Assembly (NCBI GenBank): GCA_048939995.1
Contig: JBHLOY010000009.1
Location: 32,001 to 96,000, forward strand
Origin: Promethearchaeota archaeon
Lineage (GTDB): Archaea > Asgardarchaeota > Lokiarchaeia > Sigyniarchaeales > SOKP01
Direction: 5' to 3'
Length of the DNA stretch: 64,000 bases
This document shows positions 54,134 to 63,052 of this stretch, piece by piece (positions within the stretch are counted from its first letter, which is position 1; each line of letters opens with the position of its first letter). Below the pieces are notes generated by a model. It saw only the letters and a program-made list of their open reading frames with translations, did no database searches and was not told the origin of the DNA. A program made the translations under genes and the position numbers.

Positions 54134-54562
54134 ATGAGTAGTACGAAAGTAAAAGAATCAAGTACAGTTTTAAATATCCTTTTAATCCTTCTTGGACTGG
54201 TTTTCTTATTTAAGGCAGTAATCGAAGTTTTAAATTGGTTTGGGATATTACTCCCCGGTGAGTGGGGTGGATTTGAGGAGTTAGAAATATTTGGGGCTTT
54301 AGGTTTAGTATCTATTGCTTTAGGTGTTTGGTCAATTATCGCAGGAGTTGGAATGTTTAAAGAAGCAAAATGGGCATTGGGAATAGCATTAGTAGTATTA
54401 AGCATTATGGTATTAACTGGGATTGCTCCTATAGTCGGATGGATTCAAGATATATCATCATTTGATTATACTTACTGGCCAAATTATATTACTTTGATCT
54501 CATTCGTTATTGGAATAGTCGGATTTTTCTGGTTGCTTTTCACAAGAAAAAGGTATGTTTAG
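54134..54562 (+). CDS. Hypothetical four-TM membrane protein
   Basis: Four hydrophobic helices, ATG start, U-rich tract downstream. Confidence 0.7.
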   Translation: MSSTKVKESSTVLNILLILLGLVFLFKAVIEVLNWFGILLPGEWGGFEELEIFGALGLVSIALGVWSIIAGVGMFKEAKWALGIALVVLSIMVLTGIAPIVGWIQDISSFDYTYWPNYITLISFVIGIVGFFWLLFTRKRYV

Positions 54563-54702
54563 TTTTATTTAAAAAAAAAATTTAATTTCTTTTTATTTCT
54601 TTTTGGGATTTTAGAATAAAGCCTTTTAACAATAAGGTAAAATTATATAAATAAGATAATTATTAATAATAATTAATATTCATAATCGAATTCCAATGAA
54701 AG

Positions 54703-57700
54703 GTGATTTTTTTGCAGCAAGAATTAGGTGAAAAAACTGAAATCGAGAGTTTTGAATATCCTAAACACTTATACCCGGAGAAGAAAGGGTTAGCTAAAGC
54801 TTTTCAATTAGCTAGGAATTTTGGACATAGTGATTCTATTAATTCAGTCGCTGTTTCTTCTCAAGGGGATCTTATCGTGAGTGGTTCTAATGATAAAACG
54901 TTAAAAGTCTGGGATTTTTCATCAGGAAATCTTTTAAGGACAATTGAAGCACATAGCAAGGAAATTTTAAGTGTTGCTATATCTAAGGATGATAGTTACA
55001 TAATTAGCGGTTCCTCAGATAATTCAATAAAGGTGTGGGGGTTAAGGAGAGGAAATCTGATTCATCATCTTAAGGATCATAAAGATGAGGTAACATGTTT
55101 AGTAGTTAGTCCTGATGGGAAACAATTGATAAGTGGTTCTAAAGATACGACTGTTATAGTATGGGATCTATTAGCAGGGAAATTACTGCATACTTTTGAA
55201 CTTAAAAATCCCATTAAATCTGTTGTTGTGTCCCCAAATGAGAATTTACTAGCTTGTGGAAATGATGAGGGCTTAATATATTTATTGAATTTAAAGAAAA
55301 ATAAACTCGAGAATAAGTTTAGGGAGCATTCAGGTAATGTCAATTCATTAAAGATTTCAGTAGATGGCAATTATATGGTGAGTGGTGCTGATGATAATAG
55401 GATAATAATATGGGATTTATCGAAAAAAAAACCTCTACTGAAACTTGAAGCTCATTCGGGTTCTGTACGAGCGGTGGCTATATCTCCCGATGGAAGTTTA
55501 CTGGTTAGTGGTTCTGAAGATAAAACAATCAGATTTTGGGATTTATCAACAGGTAAACTTACTAGAACCTTAAAAGGTTATACTGATGCTGTAACATCTT
55601 TGGCCTTTTCCCCCAATGGAAAATATATCGTAGCAGGTTCTAGTAATAATGATATCATGGTCTGGGAGTTGGGAGAAGGTACTCTTTTAGGCTCAATTGA
55701 AGCTCATTCATCAGGTATTAATAAAATTAGTATATCACCCAATGGAGAATACATTGCTACAGGATCAGATGATGGTACAGTAAAACTATGGAACATGAAG
55801 ACCCAAAGTCTTATAAAAACCTTTAGTGGTCATAAAAAACCAATTGTTTCATTAGCATTCGCACCTAACGTTCCTTATTATTTAGTTAGCACTTCTTTGG
55901 ATAGAAATGTAATAATTTGGAATATTGTAAATTCAGAAATCATCCAAACCCTAAAAAAAGAATCAGCAGTAGCTCAGGCTGTAGATTTTGCTCTAGAAAA
56001 TAACCGTATAATTTTAGGGTACAGCAATAATTATATAAAGATTTGGGATATTGATAGTCAAAATTTCATATGGGAAAAAAAGGCTCATAAAGGAGGAATC
56101 ACCTCTATAGCTTTTACGCCAAATGGTCGGTACTTTGTTAGTTGTTCAGAAGATAAAACCATAAAGATATGGGATTTTTCTTCAAAAGAAGAAATTAAAT
56201 CTCTTGAGGATCATAAGGGAAAAGTTTTATCAATTGCAATTTCTCCAAATGGAAGAACAATTTATAGTAGTGCAGATGACAAATTGATTAAAGCCCATGA
56301 TTTCTATAGCGGAGAATTAATCGCAAATCTTGAAGGTCATAATGATGCTATAGGGAGTATTTCATGTTCAGCTATGGGAACTTGTTTAGTAAGTGGTTCT
56401 GATGATAATACTGTTAAAGTATGGGACGCTGTAAGATATCAATTGATTCAAACATTTGAGGGTCATTCAAAAGAAGTCACATCTGTGTCGGTTACCCCAA
56501 ATGGAAAAATTCTTATCAGTGGATCTCAAGATGGAGATTTAAAGTTATGGTCGTTAAATTTTGGGGGTGTATTTAAGAATATTAAAGGCCATACTGACAG
56601 TGTGAATTCAATTGCCGTGTCTTCAAACGCAAAATACGCTTTAAGTGGATTGTCAAATCATTCATTAATCTTATGGGATGTTTCTAATGGAGAATCAATC
56701 AAAATTTTTACGGGACATACAGATATTATAAGCTCGATAGTATTTTCTCCAGGTGGAAAATATATGGCTAGTGCTTCATATGATAATACTTTAAAAATTT
56801 GGGAGATAAATAGTGGAGAAGTTCTTTATACACTAAATGGTCATAGTGATGCTGTTACTTCAGTTGCTGCATCAAATGATACAAATTATATTGTTAGTGG
56901 ATCAAAGGATAAAACCATTATAATATGGGAAACGCACTCAGGAAAATTGGTTAAAAGGCTAAAAGGGCATGAAAAAGCTGTTACAACCATTGATATTTCA
57001 CCAAATAGTGAATTCTTTATTAGTGGATCAGAGGATAATTCAATTATTATTTGGGATCTTAAGAAAGGAAAGCAGATTCGTACTCTAGAAGGGCATACCG
57101 GGACAATAACAGCCTTAGCATTTTCACCAAAAGGAGATTATATTGTTAGTGGGTCAAAAGATCAGACTGTAAGAATATGGAAATTTGAAACTGGTGAATT
57201 AGACTACGTATTTGAAAAAATAAATAGTCCAATTACTTCAGTTGCGATATCCACTGATGGTTTATACTTAGCATGTGGAACAGAAGATAATTTTTTAAGG
57301 ATATGGGATTTTGTAGAGAAGTATCAGACAACTTATTATTACTTATCAAGAATAAATTCACTGAGATTTATTCCTAATAGGGAACAGATTATTGCGGGCT
57401 ACGATTCTGGAGATGTGTTAATTTGGGATTTATTATTGGAAGAACAGGAACAATTAATTAAAGAACTTCGAGGAAAACTAAATGATGTTGAAAAATTAAT
57501 TGGTGATAATAAATACACTGATGCGATTGAACAATTGAACTTTATTTTAGAGACAGCTGATTTATTTAACATTGAAGAAATTAGGAATATTGCATTTGAA
57601 AAGCTTAAGAATCTAAGAGATCCCCAAGAAAAGCTCAGAGTGGTTAAAAAGATTTTAGAATTTGAATTTGAAAATCAAAGAGAGATAACTAAAGCTGAGA

Positions 57701-58383
57701 TGGTCAGTCATTTAAATATTGAAATCTCCGATATTGATTTTTATGAACAATTACTAAAAGTCTCTCTTGATTATAGTCAAGCTGAAACTCCAGAATTAGA
57801 ATCTCTTGGTACTAAAATTTTAAAAGAATATATGAATCCTACGCTATATGATTTAGTAGTAAAATTAGAATTTGAGATTGCTAAGGCTAAAAAAATCGGT
57901 AAATTTCTTAAAGATAGAGGATTTATTAAAGAATTTAGAAATTATCCCTTAAGTGATATGGGAAGAATTAATGGTAAAGGTATATCCGTTTTTGTTAGTT
58001 ACGCAACAAAAGACGCACCCCTCTTTAAGATAGAAGAAGTAGCCCATAAACTTAAAGACTATGATGATATCCAAGAGGTGCTCTACTGGCAAGAACATAT
58101 GAAAGACAATATTATCAAATACATGAGTGATAATCTTGGTAAATGTCATGTAGTTTTATTATTTTGTTCCGAAAATGCTTTGAAATCTACTCCGGTTGAG
58201 GAGGAATGGACTGCAGCAGACATGATGAGAAAACCAATAATTCCTATATTTTTAAAACCAGAACACATTCCTCCCTTGCTTAAATCTAGATTGGGATATG
58301 AATTTGATTTAATAGATATGGACCGCAATATAAATCAAATTCATAATTTAATATTTAAAAAATGTCAGAGTCCTGATAAATAA
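54703..58383 (+). CDS. WD40-repeat (21 repeats) protein with C-terminal TIR domain
   Basis: 21 GH...WD-type repeats counted manually; C-terminal VFVSYA...VLLFCSENALKS..VEEEW...PIIPIF...IPPLL. Confidence 0.92.
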   Translation: MIFLQQELGEKTEIESFEYPKHLYPEKKGLAKAFQLARNFGHSDSINSVAVSSQGDLIVSGSNDKTLKVWDFSSGNLLRTIEAHSKEILSVAISKDDSYIISGSSDNSIKVWGLRRGNLIHHLKDHKDEVTCLVVSPDGKQLISGSKDTTVIVWDLLAGKLLHTFELKNPIKSVVVSPNENLLACGNDEGLIYLLNLKKNKLENKFREHSGNVNSLKISVDGNYMVSGADDNRIIIWDLSKKKPLLKLEAHSGSVRAVAISPDGSLLVSGSEDKTIRFWDLSTGKLTRTLKGYTDAVTSLAFSPNGKYIVAGSSNNDIMVWELGEGTLLGSIEAHSSGINKISISPNGEYIATGSDDGTVKLWNMKTQSLIKTFSGHKKPIVSLAFAPNVPYYLVSTSLDRNVIIWNIVNSEIIQTLKKESAVAQAVDFALENNRIILGYSNNYIKIWDIDSQNFIWEKKAHKGGITSIAFTPNGRYFVSCSEDKTIKIWDFSSKEEIKSLEDHKGKVLSIAISPNGRTIYSSADDKLIKAHDFYSGELIANLEGHNDAIGSISCSAMGTCLVSGSDDNTVKVWDAVRYQLIQTFEGHSKEVTSVSVTPNGKILISGSQDGDLKLWSLNFGGVFKNIKGHTDSVNSIAVSSNAKYALSGLSNHSLILWDVSNGESIKIFTGHTDIISSIVFSPGGKYMASASYDNTLKIWEINSGEVLYTLNGHSDAVTSVAASNDTNYIVSGSKDKTIIIWETHSGKLVKRLKGHEKAVTTIDISPNSEFFISGSEDNSIIIWDLKKGKQIRTLEGHTGTITALAFSPKGDYIVSGSKDQTVRIWKFETGELDYVFEKINSPITSVAISTDGLYLACGTEDNFLRIWDFVEKYQTTYYYLSRINSLRFIPNREQIIAGYDSGDVLIWDLLLEEQEQLIKELRGKLNDVEKLIGDNKYTDAIEQLNFILETADLFNIEEIRNIAFEKLKNLRDPQEKLRVVKKILEFEFENQREITKAEMVSHLNIEISDIDFYEQLLKVSLDYSQAETPELESLGTKILKEYMNPTLYDLVVKLEFEIAKAKKIGKFLKDRGFIKEFRNYPLSDMGRINGKGISVFVSYATKDAPLFKIEEVAHKLKDYDDIQEVLYWQEHMKDNIIKYMSDNLGKCHVVLLFCSENALKSTPVEEEWTAADMMRKPIIPIFLKPEHIPPLLKSRLGYEFDLIDMDRNINQIHNLIFKKCQSPDK

Positions 58384-58578: not shown

Positions 58579-60315
58579 ATGTCAGATGAATTTGATAAAA
58601 ATTTAATCCAGCAAGTTATTGATTCTAATGAGTTTAAAGCATGGTTAATTTCCAAAAGATGGTTTGGAGATAAAACATTATTGTCAAACTTGGATTTTAA
58701 AATTAATTTGAAATATTTTGAATTTATAGTAGAAAGAATCTTTATTACTGTAATTTCTATAGAGAAAAATAATTATTCTAAATCTTACTTCCTTCCTTTA
58801 ATATATTACCATAAAATAATGGATATTCTTGATCCTGTTGAAAATATCAGAGGAAATGTTGTAAGATTAACGGAGAAAACCTTTAGTAAGATTCTGATCA
58901 GAAACATTACTGAAGAGGGGCAAAACAATGTGTTTCCAGTTAATTTGATTGAAGCTGAATACTGTCTTTTCTTCTGGAAAAAATTATTATTTGATAAACA
59001 TATCTCTGAATATTTTCCTTCAATGTCATTAGATTTAACTTTATACACTGAACAATTTCAAGATGAGCCCAACATGAAACAAGTTCAGAATCTTATCGAA
59101 GCAAGCTTATATCGAGACAGATTCGAATTATCATTAGAGCAATTAGGAGGAGGAAATACTACAAATCTTTTATTTCTCCTCAGCATTAAAAATTTAAACA
59201 TTCCAAATTCTATACCAATTTCATATGTAGTAAAATCTTATAAGGAATTCCGTGAAAGTTTTGAACCTAGAATATTATTTGTGTTAGTTAAAAATAAATT
59301 TCCTAATGCTCCAAAAATATATGGAACATTAAAATTTCATGAAAAAGATACAATAGGGATTCTCCAAAATGTACCTAATTTAGGTAACGTAGGAGATATT
59401 TATTGGAATGATCTAAATAATATGATTTATAAAGTTTTTAGGGATATAAATGAGGATTATAGTTATTTAGATAATAAAGAAAAGATGTCAGAAATAATTT
59501 ACCAAAATTGTTCTGAATCTCTAAAAGTCTCAGAAAAAATCGGTGTCCATATAAAAGAATTGCATAAGGCTCTTGTTCTCCCTGATCGAGAAGACTTTAA
59601 TAAAGAAACTGTTGATAGTGAAAATTTTCTCGAGCAGTATACAAATAAGTTGAATTCTATGATAATGGCGATTCAGTCTAAAATGAAGGAAAAATCAGAA
59701 AGTTCATTCTTTAAATCTCCAAAAATAAGTTCTATTCTGATAGATATTAGAGATATTATTGAGAAATTCAGATCAGAATTTAGAGTTCCAGAAATAGACA
59801 TCCAACCGGTGCATCAAGATTTACATATGCAACAAATTCTTTATAATAAAATTAATGGAGAGTATCAATTTTATTTTATTGATTTTGAGGGTGATCCTCA
59901 ATTAACTCCTGAAGAAAAAAAACACAAATTTCCTATTGAAAAAGATCTAGCCTCATTTTTAAGGTCTTTAAGTTATATAAAATTCAATACAATACTTAAC
60001 TTCATAGAACAAAGGATTATAGATCACAATAAATTTGAGGTAGCAGAAGAATTTTTATTTAGCACTTATTTTAGGAAAGCTTCAAAAATAAGCCTAAAAC
60101 ATAAAATTCTTGAAATTATTTTAAAATTACTCAGTAGTTGGGAATTAAAATTAATGGGAAAACTTTTTGAGGAGGGAGAAAAATTACATTTTACATTGAT
60201 CAATTATTTTACGATTGAGCGCGCTCTTCACGAATTAGATTATGAATTATTATTTAGGCCAAATAAAACTATTGTCCCAATTTTGGGTTTAAAAGAAATC
60301 ATAGATAAATATTAA
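58579..60315 (+). CDS. Maltokinase (Mak/Pep2)-like kinase
   Basis: N-cap WL.SKRWFGDK; LHKAL; HQDLHMQQIL; IDFEGDP; DLASFLRSLSY; ELDYEL..RP. Confidence 0.8.
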   Translation: MSDEFDKNLIQQVIDSNEFKAWLISKRWFGDKTLLSNLDFKINLKYFEFIVERIFITVISIEKNNYSKSYFLPLIYYHKIMDILDPVENIRGNVVRLTEKTFSKILIRNITEEGQNNVFPVNLIEAEYCLFFWKKLLFDKHISEYFPSMSLDLTLYTEQFQDEPNMKQVQNLIEASLYRDRFELSLEQLGGGNTTNLLFLLSIKNLNIPNSIPISYVVKSYKEFRESFEPRILFVLVKNKFPNAPKIYGTLKFHEKDTIGILQNVPNLGNVGDIYWNDLNNMIYKVFRDINEDYSYLDNKEKMSEIIYQNCSESLKVSEKIGVHIKELHKALVLPDREDFNKETVDSENFLEQYTNKLNSMIMAIQSKMKEKSESSFFKSPKISSILIDIRDIIEKFRSEFRVPEIDIQPVHQDLHMQQILYNKINGEYQFYFIDFEGDPQLTPEEKKHKFPIEKDLASFLRSLSYIKFNTILNFIEQRIIDHNKFEVAEEFLFSTYFRKASKISLKHKILEIILKLLSSWELKLMGKLFEEGEKLHFTLINYFTIERALHELDYELLFRPNKTIVPILGLKEIIDKY

Positions 60316-61909: not shown

Positions 61910-63052
61910 TTATAAAAAATGAGATATAAGGGTATTTTTAATTCTTTCAAAATGACCTAGGTTTACTTTTAGTAAGTCATTAAGAGCCTCGTTAAGACCT
62001 GCTTTTTCAATTTTCTTTGTAATTCTATAATAAGGACTTTTTTTCAATTTTGCAATTAAAAGTTTATTGGTTTCAATTGAGTCAAAAAGAAAATCTCTGG
62101 CTTTTATCACATCTACATTTAAAATTCTCTGAATAATTGTTAGTAACATGGCATCAAATGTAATTCTTAGGATAATTTCTCTGTCAAATTCTGTTTTTTT
62201 AGGAAATAAGTAGTCTTTAAGGAGTGAAATTGATTCTTTAAAAAGATCTATTGAATCGCTTCCCAAACTTTCTATTTTATCTTTAAAATCAGTATTATTC
62301 AAAGCAGTTAAACAGATTGCGGATAAAACTTGATATTCTGCGATAAAATGAATAAATCTGGCTTTTGCATTTAGGACCGTATCTTTAGAATCTTCTGCCT
62401 CAGTAAGTAGATTTCCTAAATTATCAAGAGATTTTCTAAAGTAGGTGGATATTGTATAAAATTTATCAGAGGCTTCTTCAAATGCTTTACTTTCTAATAA
62501 TAATTGAGCTTTTTTTTCTTCTTGTTGATATAGTTCATCAAATTTATTAATTTTCATAACTGCCTTTAATATCAATCGTTTACCTAAATCTTTAGTTAGC
62601 TGAGAACGTTCATAGGTTTGACCTGCTTTCAACAAAAAAATAGAAGCTAAGCTATGATACTCTTCAGGGTCTGCTTTAAGGAAATATTCAGAAGCACTAC
62701 TCCAACTATCACCTGCAGTTTCCCAGTCATTCATTTGAAATGATAGGTTTCCTAGTTGGATCAATAACTTCGCAGAAATTTCGTATAATTTTAATTCTTC
62801 AGTTTTGCGAATAATTGATTTTAATCTATATACCGCTTGGATGTGATTTTTGAACTGTGAAATGATACGAGTAATACGAATAAATATTTCATCCAATTTA
62901 AAATAACTCCCAAGATCTAAGTAGATTTGTGCTGCTTTTTCATATATTTTTATAGCATCATCTCCTTTACCTTTATCAATAAGATTTTCAGCACGATCAA
63001 TTAGTTGAATTGCTTCAATTTCTTTTTCTTCTTTATCTTGATTGTTATACAT
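61910..63052 (-). CDS. All-helical TPR-like / alpha-SNAP-like protein
   Basis: AIKIYEKAAQIYLDLG; GNLSFQMNDWETAGDSWSSASEYFLK...ASIFLLKAGQTYER. Confidence 0.65.
   Translation of the reverse strand: MYNNQDKEEKEIEAIQLIDRAENLIDKGKGDDAIKIYEKAAQIYLDLGSYFKLDEIFIRITRIISQFKNHIQAVYRLKSIIRKTEELKLYEISAKLLIQLGNLSFQMNDWETAGDSWSSASEYFLKADPEEYHSLASIFLLKAGQTYERSQLTKDLGKRLILKAVMKINKFDELYQQEEKKAQLLLESKAFEEASDKFYTISTYFRKSLDNLGNLLTEAEDSKDTVLNAKARFIHFIAEYQVLSAICLTALNNTDFKDKIESLGSDSIDLFKESISLLKDYLFPKKTEFDREIILRITFDAMLLTIIQRILNVDVIKARDFLFDSIETNKLLIAKLKKSPYYRITKKIEKAGLNEALNDLLKVNLGHFERIKNTLISHFL

Follow-up and report, generated by a model that had tools for sequence, protein, structure and literature searches.

The WD40-TIR gene and its start

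The subject of this analysis is a gene for a large protein with WD40 repeats and a C-terminal TIR domain (WD40-TIR protein), located in a window of 64,000 nucleotides from a Promethearchaeota archaeon (assembly GCA_048939995.1, contig JBHLOY010000009.1, positions 32,001 to 96,000). "The window" denotes this whole stretch of DNA, to which the coordinates refer unless a genome and contig are named. Animals, plants and bacteria all rely on TIR domains for innate immunity, and the archaeal ones are barely known. The gene probably encodes one receptor of a signalling or defence module based on nicotinamide adenine dinucleotide (NAD), in which the TIR domain is most likely an NAD+ hydrolase or signal generator clustered by its sensor. 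The following features were assigned to the gene:

54703 to 58383, plus strand: WD40(x21)-adaptor-TIR gene, a single uninterrupted frame of 1,226 codons counted from GTG 54703
54790 to 55668, plus strand: WD40 repeats 1-7, putative propeller 1 (residues 30-322; mean orthologue identity 59%)
55669 to 56553, plus strand: WD40 repeats 8-14, putative propeller 2 (residues 323-617; mean orthologue identity 58%)
56554 to 57429, plus strand: WD40 repeats 15-21, putative propeller 3, the best conserved (residues 618-909; mean orthologue identity 70%)
57430 to 57957, plus strand: all-helical adaptor domain (residues 910-1085; one long helix, then eight shorter ones; predicted local distance difference test score, pLDDT, >90)
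57976 to 58368, plus strand: TIR domain (residues 1092-1222; match to PF13676, TIR_2, and fold)
57997 to 57999, plus strand: codon of Ser1099 at the end of beta-A, which matches SARM1 Ser567 and SNC1 Ser26 by position
58204 to 58206, plus strand: codon for the putative catalytic residue, Glu1168, of the predicted helix alpha-C

The gene is real and well defined, and its open reading frame (ORF) is intact. A first-pass annotation, which a model had made from the sequence alone, delimited the same frame and assumed an Asgard archaeon as host; the latter agrees with the named relatives, all of which are metagenome-assembled genomes (MAGs) of Promethearchaeota, Lokiarchaeota or Hermodarchaeota. 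Nothing foreign was found about the region in its guanine-plus-cytosine (GC) content or skew.

The GTG listed as start (54703) overlaps a Shine-Dalgarno-like element GGTGA. Since an in-frame TTG at 54712 is located 5 nt after this element and is aligned with the initiator methionine of the orthologue in genome G231, TTG 54712 is probably the true start codon, resulting in a protein of 1,223 amino acids (aa).

WD40 repeats and propellers

The repeat region matched the Pfam family WD40 (PF00400) with an E-value of 6.5e-210. A total of 18 stretches were called, and propeller families match along residues ~40-910. Segmentation at a period of 42 aa resulted in exactly 21 units of 40 to 43 aa between residues 30 and 909, the same number that had been counted before. 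The mean pairwise identity of the units is 31%, ranging between 10 and 50%, and the terminal W-D is degenerate in three or four of the 21. Due to this low identity, the repeats are old and not recently amplified, and they are diverged, as the first-pass annotation had described them.

A structure model of residues 27-1226 was built on ten orthologues (mean pLDDT 82.6; predicted template modelling score, pTM, 0.44) and contains about 82 strands, four per WD40 repeat. The stretches of weakest confidence were found at the borders of repeats 7/8 and 14/15, which is consistent with a partition into 7+7+7 blades; this partition is read from the confidence dips only, and the mutual arrangement of the propellers is not confidently predicted at a pTM of 0.44. 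The top structural matches of the repeat region are tandem seven-bladed propellers, namely Nostoc 2ymu (E 3e-55, 35% identity), UTP proteins, Aip1 and Trm734, and the Trm734/WDR6 structure 6jp6 was aligned over 1,032 columns. Because of the dips at the repeat borders and the tandem seven-bladed best matches, three seven-bladed propellers are a plausible and the most economical reading of the model. The suggestion that 21 repeats are compatible with three propellers thus fits the model, whereas separate propellers are plausible and not proven. The 14-repeat double propeller of Nostoc (PDB 2ymu) and the triple propeller of Trm734/WDR6 (PDB 6jp6), which are the best fold matches, lack a TIR domain, unlike the WD40-TIR protein.

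Adaptor, TIR domain and absence of a nucleoside triphosphatase

For the C-terminal part, a second structure model of residues 905-1226 was built on 48 homologues (pLDDT 93.4). It consists of a 29-residue helix leaving the last blade, eight more helices, a short disordered tether and a five-stranded alpha/beta domain. The adaptor (residues 910-1085) has no Pfam family. It also precedes the TIR domain in TPR-TIR proteins and is located behind other N-termini as well; because of this recurrence it is best regarded as a conserved adaptor domain and not as a spacer. The "helical linker" of about 180 aa in the first-pass annotation was therefore right as to the helices, nine of which lie between residues ~910 and 1085, and too modest as to their nature. 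A PCI domain was considered for the adaptor, as PCI-like matches occur in a paralogue and in LRR-TIR proteins; it was rejected, since BLAST aligns only the TIR domain with these proteins.

The C-terminal domain matched positions 1-107 of the 122 in the TIR_2 profile (PF13676), scoring 54.9 bits where the cutoff is 28 (E 1.5e-14), and its model contains beta-A to beta-D and alpha-A to alpha-E. The Foldseek matches of the C-terminal model support a TIR fold, and VIA-align runs on the adaptor-TIR model returned TIR and flavodoxin-like matches. Aligned to solved TIR structures with VIA-align, the TIR model reached Z-scores of 13-14.5 with a root-mean-square deviation (rmsd) of 2.4-3.4 Å over 114-133 residues, the matches including SARM1, TIR-1 of C. 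elegans, TIR-APAZ of SPARTA, AbTir, RUN1/RPS4, Cat1 and ThsB. The C-terminal TIR domain proposed before was thus recovered by profile and by fold. The scaffold TIRs MAL, MyD88 and Hydra TRR-2 match the model equally well as the enzymes, so that the fold alone does not distinguish between an enzyme and a scaffold.

In sequence searches against solved structures with the C-terminal 317 residues and with the family profile, no significant TIR match was found, the best being a bacterial SEFIR domain (E 0.5). The assignment consequently rests on Pfam and fold, and the subfamily appears to be divergent within the TIR domains. The ThsB_TIR model reached 17.2 bits on the domain, below its cutoff of 21.2.

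No Walker A motif was found in the protein sequence, and neither NACHT nor NB-ARC is among the 25 Pfam families listed for the protein. In addition, the model of residues 27-1226 consists of propeller strands, helices and TIR only and leaves no room for a nucleoside triphosphatase (NTPase) domain. The absence of a P-loop, noted in the first pass, is therefore supported by motif, family and model.

Conserved residues of the putative active site

For the analysis of conserved residues, 175 TIR domains from the 150 best cluster representatives were aligned. Glu1168 is Glu in 172 of the 175 family TIRs and invariant in a separate alignment of 48 sequences, so that the acidic residue that had been placed at the catalytic position is indeed kept. 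It is part of the motif S1162-T-P-V-E-E-E1168-W, in which the following Trp1169 (position +1) is Trp in 160 of 175 sequences. Ser1099 (Ser in 166) and Asp1104 (Asp in 170) are similarly frequent, with strong conservation in the BB-loop segment (VLYWQE.M.DNI) as well.

TIR_2-type enzymes share the spacing S-x5-S-x5-E that follows beta-C. For the characterised enzymes the catalytic glutamates are E642 in SARM1 and E208 in AbTir (numbering in part from PMC11374754). According to the offsets of the structural alignments, Glu1168 is located within a few residues of both, and Ser1099, located six residues along the strand that aligns with SARM1 561.., is placed at SARM1 S567; these equivalences are drawn from secondary-structure position, spacing and alignment offsets and not from a residue-level superposition. 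The role of the catalytic Glu in NAD+-cleaving TIR domains (NADases) is documented (PMC11374754, PMC7075850), and the Glu of WxxxE in alpha-C is required for the NADase activity of bacterial TIRs (PMC11374754). A serine at a distance of 2.6-2.7 Å from the catalytic Glu is likewise needed for TIR activity (bioRxiv 10.1101/2025.04.09.647920).

The active-site motif of the family is PVxxEW in place of WxxxE. At the position of the WxxxE Trp, Pro was found in 102 of 175 sequences, and the others carry mostly Ala, Ser or Phe. This Trp has been associated with the production of isomers of cyclic ADP-ribose (cADPR; PMC11374754). By its conserved residues, the TIR domain would be expected to be an NAD+-cleaving enzyme, and since the Trp is missing, its products need not be the classical cyclic ones. 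In the catalytic motif S..VEEEW of the first-pass annotation the position of the Glu was right, and the absence of the WxxxE Trp had been overlooked.

Distribution of the TIR family and of the orthologues

A search of a word-indexed collection with residues 905-1226 resulted in 13 proteins, and all of those named by source originate from MAGs of the three groups given above. Two are fragments of orthologues; the remaining ones carry the TIR domain with 59-70% identity behind TPR repeats, behind LRRs and a PCI-like domain, or in a helical protein of 1,136 residues. An exhaustive search of representatives yielded 718 proteins with E<=0.001, of which 137 reach E<=1e-30. The TIR module is thus common to WD40, TPR, LRR, LVIVD and other proteins. 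In species-representative genomes, 14 of 14 loci belong to Promethearchaeota or uncultured archaeal MAGs, and among the named matches the family is restricted to Asgard archaea. One protein of the representative search, P0017 (604 aa), consists of four tandem TIR domains of the same subfamily.

Of 301 genomes sampled from the phylum, 44 contain the TIR domain at E<=1e-15, with a maximum of 11 copies in a genome; within the family to which the window belongs, it was present in 37 of 68. Several genomes of the same genus with a completeness of 100% lack the WD40-TIR gene or the whole TIR subfamily. A tree of the TIR domains groups by architecture, and 9 of the 10 proteins with 21 WD40 repeats fall into one clade (91 in the Shimodaira-Hasegawa-like approximate likelihood ratio test, SH-aLRT). 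Based on this grouping, each architecture is an old, separate lineage. A strongly divergent clade comprises the TIRs of the short WD40 proteins and of the LVIVD proteins.

Full-length orthologues of the WD40-TIR protein (1,180-1,228 residues, 53-62% identical) were identified in nine other genomes; seven genomes of the same genus and two other genera contain them. By part, the identity is 58-59% for propellers 1 and 2, 70% for propeller 3, 64% for the adaptor and 67% for the TIR domain. The identity between orthologues is close to that of neighbouring genes. In the viral contigs of IMG/VR no relative was found, which is weak evidence since only one peptide pattern was usable.

The window's genome contains three more close TIR paralogues and three distant TIRs. 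The close paralogues (G000:C17:477265-477657, C13:218140-218538 and C13:107418-107798) belong to proteins of 410, 547 and 498 aa, one of which has a PCI-like stretch before the TIR domain and one a TIR domain in mid-protein. Two of the distant TIRs, of a more classical type (G000:C38:136573-136872 and C38:26559-26849), are located at the C-terminal ends of proteins that are long and probably rich in TPRs, and a TPR-like gene follows each of them.

In the literature searched, no publication was found that describes this TIR family of Asgard archaea, nor one on the adaptor or the partners. A survey from 2020 listed only 118 archaeal TIR domains (PMC7075850), and a census of Asgard defence names TIR in just two system labels, Rst2TM TIR-NLR and 2TM 1TM TIR (PMC11291487).

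Neighbouring membrane-protein genes

Upstream of the WD40-TIR gene, two further features were assigned:

54134 to 54562, plus strand: small membrane protein of 142 aa with four predicted transmembrane (TM) helices (ORF and hydropathy)
54563 to 54702, plus strand: AT-rich spacer of 140 bp with T-runs after the stop codon of the four-TM (4TM) gene, a TATA-like ATTATATAAA and the GGTGA Shine-Dalgarno-like element, as read from the sequence

Due to the T-runs and the TATA-like box in the spacer, the 4TM and WD40-TIR genes may be separate transcription units. The 4TM protein has no Pfam, PHROG or NCBIfam family, and its neighbours in the Atlas are unnamed clusters. Of 11 WD40-TIR loci, drawn from three genera, 10 have the 4TM gene as a neighbour; it is located directly upstream and co-oriented in nine of them and adjacent but inverted in G303, and G065 is the only locus without it. 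Genomes with WD40-TIR mostly carry a second 4TM copy elsewhere. In a tree, the ten copies beside WD40-TIR split from eight copies located elsewhere with an SH-aLRT of 98%. Since the linked copies form a lineage of their own, a dedicated 4TM paralogue has travelled with the WD40-TIR gene across three genera; this dedicated partner is what the window adds. The second copy in the window's genome (G000:C30:3982-4404; 46% identity) belongs to the "elsewhere" lineage, and its neighbourhood is conserved in G071.

The flanks otherwise differ between the WD40-TIR loci. The upstream gene for a glycoside hydrolase of family GH57 is shared only with the closest relative G109, and the maltokinase-like gene downstream is found in no other WD40-TIR locus. 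For this reason, the alpha-glucan setting is incidental. The earlier description of a gene standing alone between alpha-glucan genes hence is not supported: the 4TM gene is its nearly constant neighbour, and the metabolic ones are not conserved.

A second candidate partner is a 2TM-Nudix protein of 575 residues. It combines a large domain at the N-terminus and two TM helices with a Nudix domain at the C-terminus (PF00293, E 2e-20), in which the Nudix box is intact. The best NCBIfam matches of this Nudix domain are models of the ADP-ribose class (NadM-Nudix and the ADP-ribose-responsive NtrR), below their cutoffs, and the protein matches the PADLOC defence candidate PDC-S07. Its gene adjoins the WD40-TIR gene in 7 of 11 loci and other TIR genes of the family in G219, G065 and G077 and, by coordinates, also in G261 and G255. 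In total, 12 genomes have it beside WD40-TIR or another TIR gene of the family, counts which overstate independence since the compared genomes are related. Nudix and TIR genes differ in order and orientation from locus to locus, and some of these loci are islands with three or four TIR genes; in G325, Nudix, 4TM and WD40-TIR follow each other in this order on one strand. A linkage that survives such rearrangement is suggestive of a partnership. With the dedicated 4TM gene, and with the 2TM-Nudix gene beside WD40-TIR or its paralogues in many relatives, the one-component system that had been proposed is not supported.

The window's genome is a case where the WD40-TIR/4TM pair is separated from the Nudix gene. 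At the window locus no family TIR gene adjoins a 2TM-Nudix gene, and only the 4TM partner is adjacent. The 2TM-Nudix orthologue of this genome is located between two paralogous genes for P-type cation ATPases and a VTT/DedA-like membrane gene (G000:C17:492000-510000).

Three TIR genes in a row adjoin the 2TM-Nudix gene in the islands G231:C114:3000-22500 and G065:C4. They encode a 548-aa TIR protein, a WD40-TIR protein with one propeller and an LVIVD-repeat/TSP3-TIR protein of ~1,070 aa. In the G231 island, the 4TM gene and the gene for the TIR protein with 21 WD40 repeats are located after the 2TM-Nudix gene.

Proposed function

The proposal draws on what the preceding sections show of the protein's architecture and fold, its conserved residues, and the linkage and distribution of the gene. 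On balance we consider it probable, by sequence comparison and by analogy with characterised systems, that the WD40-TIR protein is a sensor-effector whose clustered TIR domain would cleave NAD+, with a product that depletes the cell or signals to membrane partners, and that its role lies in conflict. The protein would be cytoplasmic, and its three WD40 propellers with 21 blades would serve as a platform for protein binding, joined by the helical adaptor to the NAD+-cleaving TIR domain. Enzymatic TIRs need self-association to build their active site, as in SARM1, plant TIRs, AbTir, TIR-SAVED and SPARTA. By analogy with these characterised enzymes, the monomeric TIR would be inactive and would be switched on when binding of a ligand to the propellers, or recruitment to a membrane partner, brings several TIR domains together.

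The product could be ADP-ribose or, because of the missing WxxxE Trp, an atypical derivative of it and not the usual 2'- or 3'-cADPR. Its formation might drain NAD+, or the product might serve as a signal. Likely receivers would be the membrane proteins, i.e., the upstream 4TM protein and the 2TM protein with its ADP-ribose-type Nudix domain, which may bind or destroy the product. In this way the WD40-TIR protein would belong to an Asgard repertoire that joins one TIR output to sensors of many types. The patchy, multi-copy and sensor-swapped distribution suggests an accessory gene and points to conflict with viruses or other mobile elements. If the TIR product is a new NAD+-derived signal and gates the Nudix membrane protein, this would be a new route of immune signalling in the lineage closest to eukaryotes and, in addition, new TIR chemistry.

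Several observations weigh against this sensor-effector. The WxxxE Trp is present in none of the 175 family TIRs and is replaced by Pro1164 here. PADLOC models match the protein by weak TIR matches only, and no defence island or mobile-element genes were found within the window. The identity between orthologues is even (53-62% over the whole length) and no hypervariable sensor region is present, unlike in many arms-race sensors. The 4TM family is widespread, being found in 62 of 100 other genomes of family f1, often in unrelated contexts, and 140-340 bp separate the 4TM gene from the TIR gene, so that co-transcription is not assured. The Nudix family was detected in 94 of 100 other genomes of the family and occurs widely without TIR neighbours, and the orthologue in the window's genome, intact and 65% identical, is unlinked on another contig (G000:C17:500611-502332).

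In PADLOC, the whole protein gave only a repeat-driven HEAT-ARM match and the TIR part weak bSEFIR and TIR-NLR matches; PHROGs returned nothing for the TIR part. By these searches the protein does not appear to be a member of any catalogued defence system. The part of the first-pass reading that proposed a repeat sensor with a TIR domain and without an NTPase in an Asgard archaeon is in agreement with the architecture, the fold and the named relatives.

A more specific version of the sensor-effector is put forward tentatively. Many Asgard sensors (triple WD40 propellers, TPR, LRR, LVIVD, membrane anchors and GTPase-like domains) might feed one type of enzymatic TIR, whose product would be read and cleared by a CorA-like channel-Nudix protein, while the 4TM protein would anchor the WD40 form or serve as its co-receptor. 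The term "CorA-like" is a candidate name for the Nudix protein, taken from an Atlas cluster at a score of 0.91, and no Pfam CorA match was found. If the product is atypical and a CorA-like Nudix protein its reader, a new second-messenger pathway of immunity would exist in the closest archaeal relatives of eukaryotes.

An alternative, which we regard as unlikely, is a non-enzymatic TIR domain that acts as a scaffold in Asgard signalling. The paralogues would co-assemble by TIR-TIR contacts like TLR, MyD88 and MAL, and the propellers would dock proteins. The equally good fit of MAL, MyD88 and Hydra TRR-2 to the fold and the missing WxxxE Trp speak for such a scaffold, as does the unusual conservation of the TIR domain (60-70% across architectures), which would be expected if the paralogues must fit together. 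On the other hand, the near-invariant Glu1168, Ser1099 and Asp1104 are hard to explain without catalysis, and the recurrent neighbour is an ADP-ribose-type Nudix gene. The clustering of the TIRs by architecture indicates no ongoing homogenisation and says little on co-assembly. If the TIR is inactive, the family would be an archaeal example of TLR-like scaffold signalling, which is also noteworthy.

More doubtful is an active TIR domain with a housekeeping or stress role, such as the removal of nicotinamide from NAD-capped RNA or control over the pool of NAD+ and ADP-ribose; the propellers would link it to a complex of the cell. Bacterial TIR proteins and one archaeal one were described to act on NAD-capped RNA in this way (PMC10937652). 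Such a role would also fit the rate of the WD40-TIR orthologues, which is approximately that of the neighbours (e.g., 65% for the Nudix gene), the metabolic neighbours and lack of a defence context at this locus, and the Nudix and 4TM families, which are nearly universal in the genomes of family f1 that were searched. However, the gene is accessory and absent from complete genomes of the same genus, the number of TIR copies ranges from 0 to 11, and conflict systems are typically marked by sensor swapping and TIR islands.

NAD+ depletion alone is how SARM1 and several bacterial TIR effectors kill, and a self-contained NAD+ depleter of abortive infection, with the 4TM and Nudix genes as bystanders kept by shared ancestry of the locus, would agree with this as well as with the unlinked Nudix gene of the window's genome, the G065 locus and the relatedness of the compared genomes, which are not independent samples; it is nevertheless improbable, since the 4TM adjacency outlasts the rearrangement of all other flanks and the inversion in G303, the linked 4TM copies are a distinct lineage, and the Nudix gene remains beside the TIR genes of a locus, whatever these are, while order and orientation change.

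Comparison with known systems

The sensor-effector favoured here belongs to the architectural class of repeat sensor and TIR domain without an NTPase (PMC9153377) and is most like SARM1 and the bacterial TIR sensor-effectors in its expected working. SARM1, the animal NAD+ hydrolase of ARM-SAM-TIR architecture, likewise has a C-terminal TIR domain regulated by repeats and no STAND NTPase. Its TIR domain was aligned with a Z-score of 13.9-14.3 and an rmsd of 2.8 Å, Glu and Ser are located at equivalent positions, and activation by TIR clustering is the logic expected in both. The proteins differ in the repeats (ARM in SARM1, WD40 propellers here) and in the domain between them, where SARM1 has octamerising SAM domains and the WD40-TIR protein an unrelated helical adaptor. 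No significant sequence match exists between the two, and the WD40-TIR protein lacks the WxxxE Trp and shows no sign of NMN/NAD+ allostery.

The bacterial TIR_2 NADases and sensor-effectors (AbTir, TIR-APAZ of SPARTA, TIR-SAVED, Cat1 and ThsB of Thoeris) have the TIR_2 family, the fold and the Glu in alpha-C in common with the WD40-TIR protein. In these systems too, a sensor is fused or bound to the TIR domain and the output is derived from NAD+; a TIR product acting on a separate effector, as in Thoeris, would fit the Nudix membrane partner. The partners of WD40-TIR, in contrast, are 4TM and 2TM-Nudix proteins, its motif is PVxxEW, and the family is found only in Asgard MAGs among the named matches. 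No ThsA-like, SAVED, CARF or Argonaute partner was found among the neighbours, and PADLOC gave no Thoeris match for the protein.

TIR-STAND receptors, i.e., plant TNLs, bacterial and archaeal TIR-NLR, Avs and NACHT proteins with WD40 or TPR repeats, and TeTIR-NACHT-WD40 of the TEP1 type, similarly combine a TIR domain with WD40 or TPR sensor repeats. They are activated by oligomerisation (PMC9153377; bioRxiv 10.64898/2026.09.21.753143). The WD40-TIR protein lacks their NTPase switch and has the reversed domain order, with the sensor at the N-terminus and the TIR domain at the C-terminus. Parts that define STAND/NLR, Thoeris, SPARTA and CBASS were looked for and are missing, so that the protein belongs to none of them.

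With the Toll-like receptor class ("group II" architecture, PMC9153377), the protein has the order of repeats, linker and C-terminal TIR domain without an NTPase in common, in addition to a paralogue repertoire with different sensors on one type of TIR. It differs in being cytoplasmic, with WD40 repeats instead of extracellular LRRs and without a TM segment. The TIR domains of Toll-like receptors are generally without the catalytic Glu, which the WD40-TIR protein keeps.

The Asgard archaea are a lineage in which TIR sensor-effectors of this kind bear on the history of innate immunity. The WD40-TIR gene is a testable case, as it combines a large soluble sensor without an NTPase, a conserved adaptor, a deviant TIR motif and two candidate membrane partners.

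Further genes in the window

The protein encoded at 61910-63052 on the minus strand (380 aa) has only weak Pfam matches to TPR and SNAP-like families (E ~1e-3). The gene downstream of WD40-TIR (58579-60315, plus strand) encodes 578 aa and was considered as a partner; it was rejected because no homologue was found in any orthologous locus. Its product is without a Pfam match and resembles the putative maltokinase domain TIGR02457 (E 1e-25, far below the cutoff) and a glucosamine kinase model.

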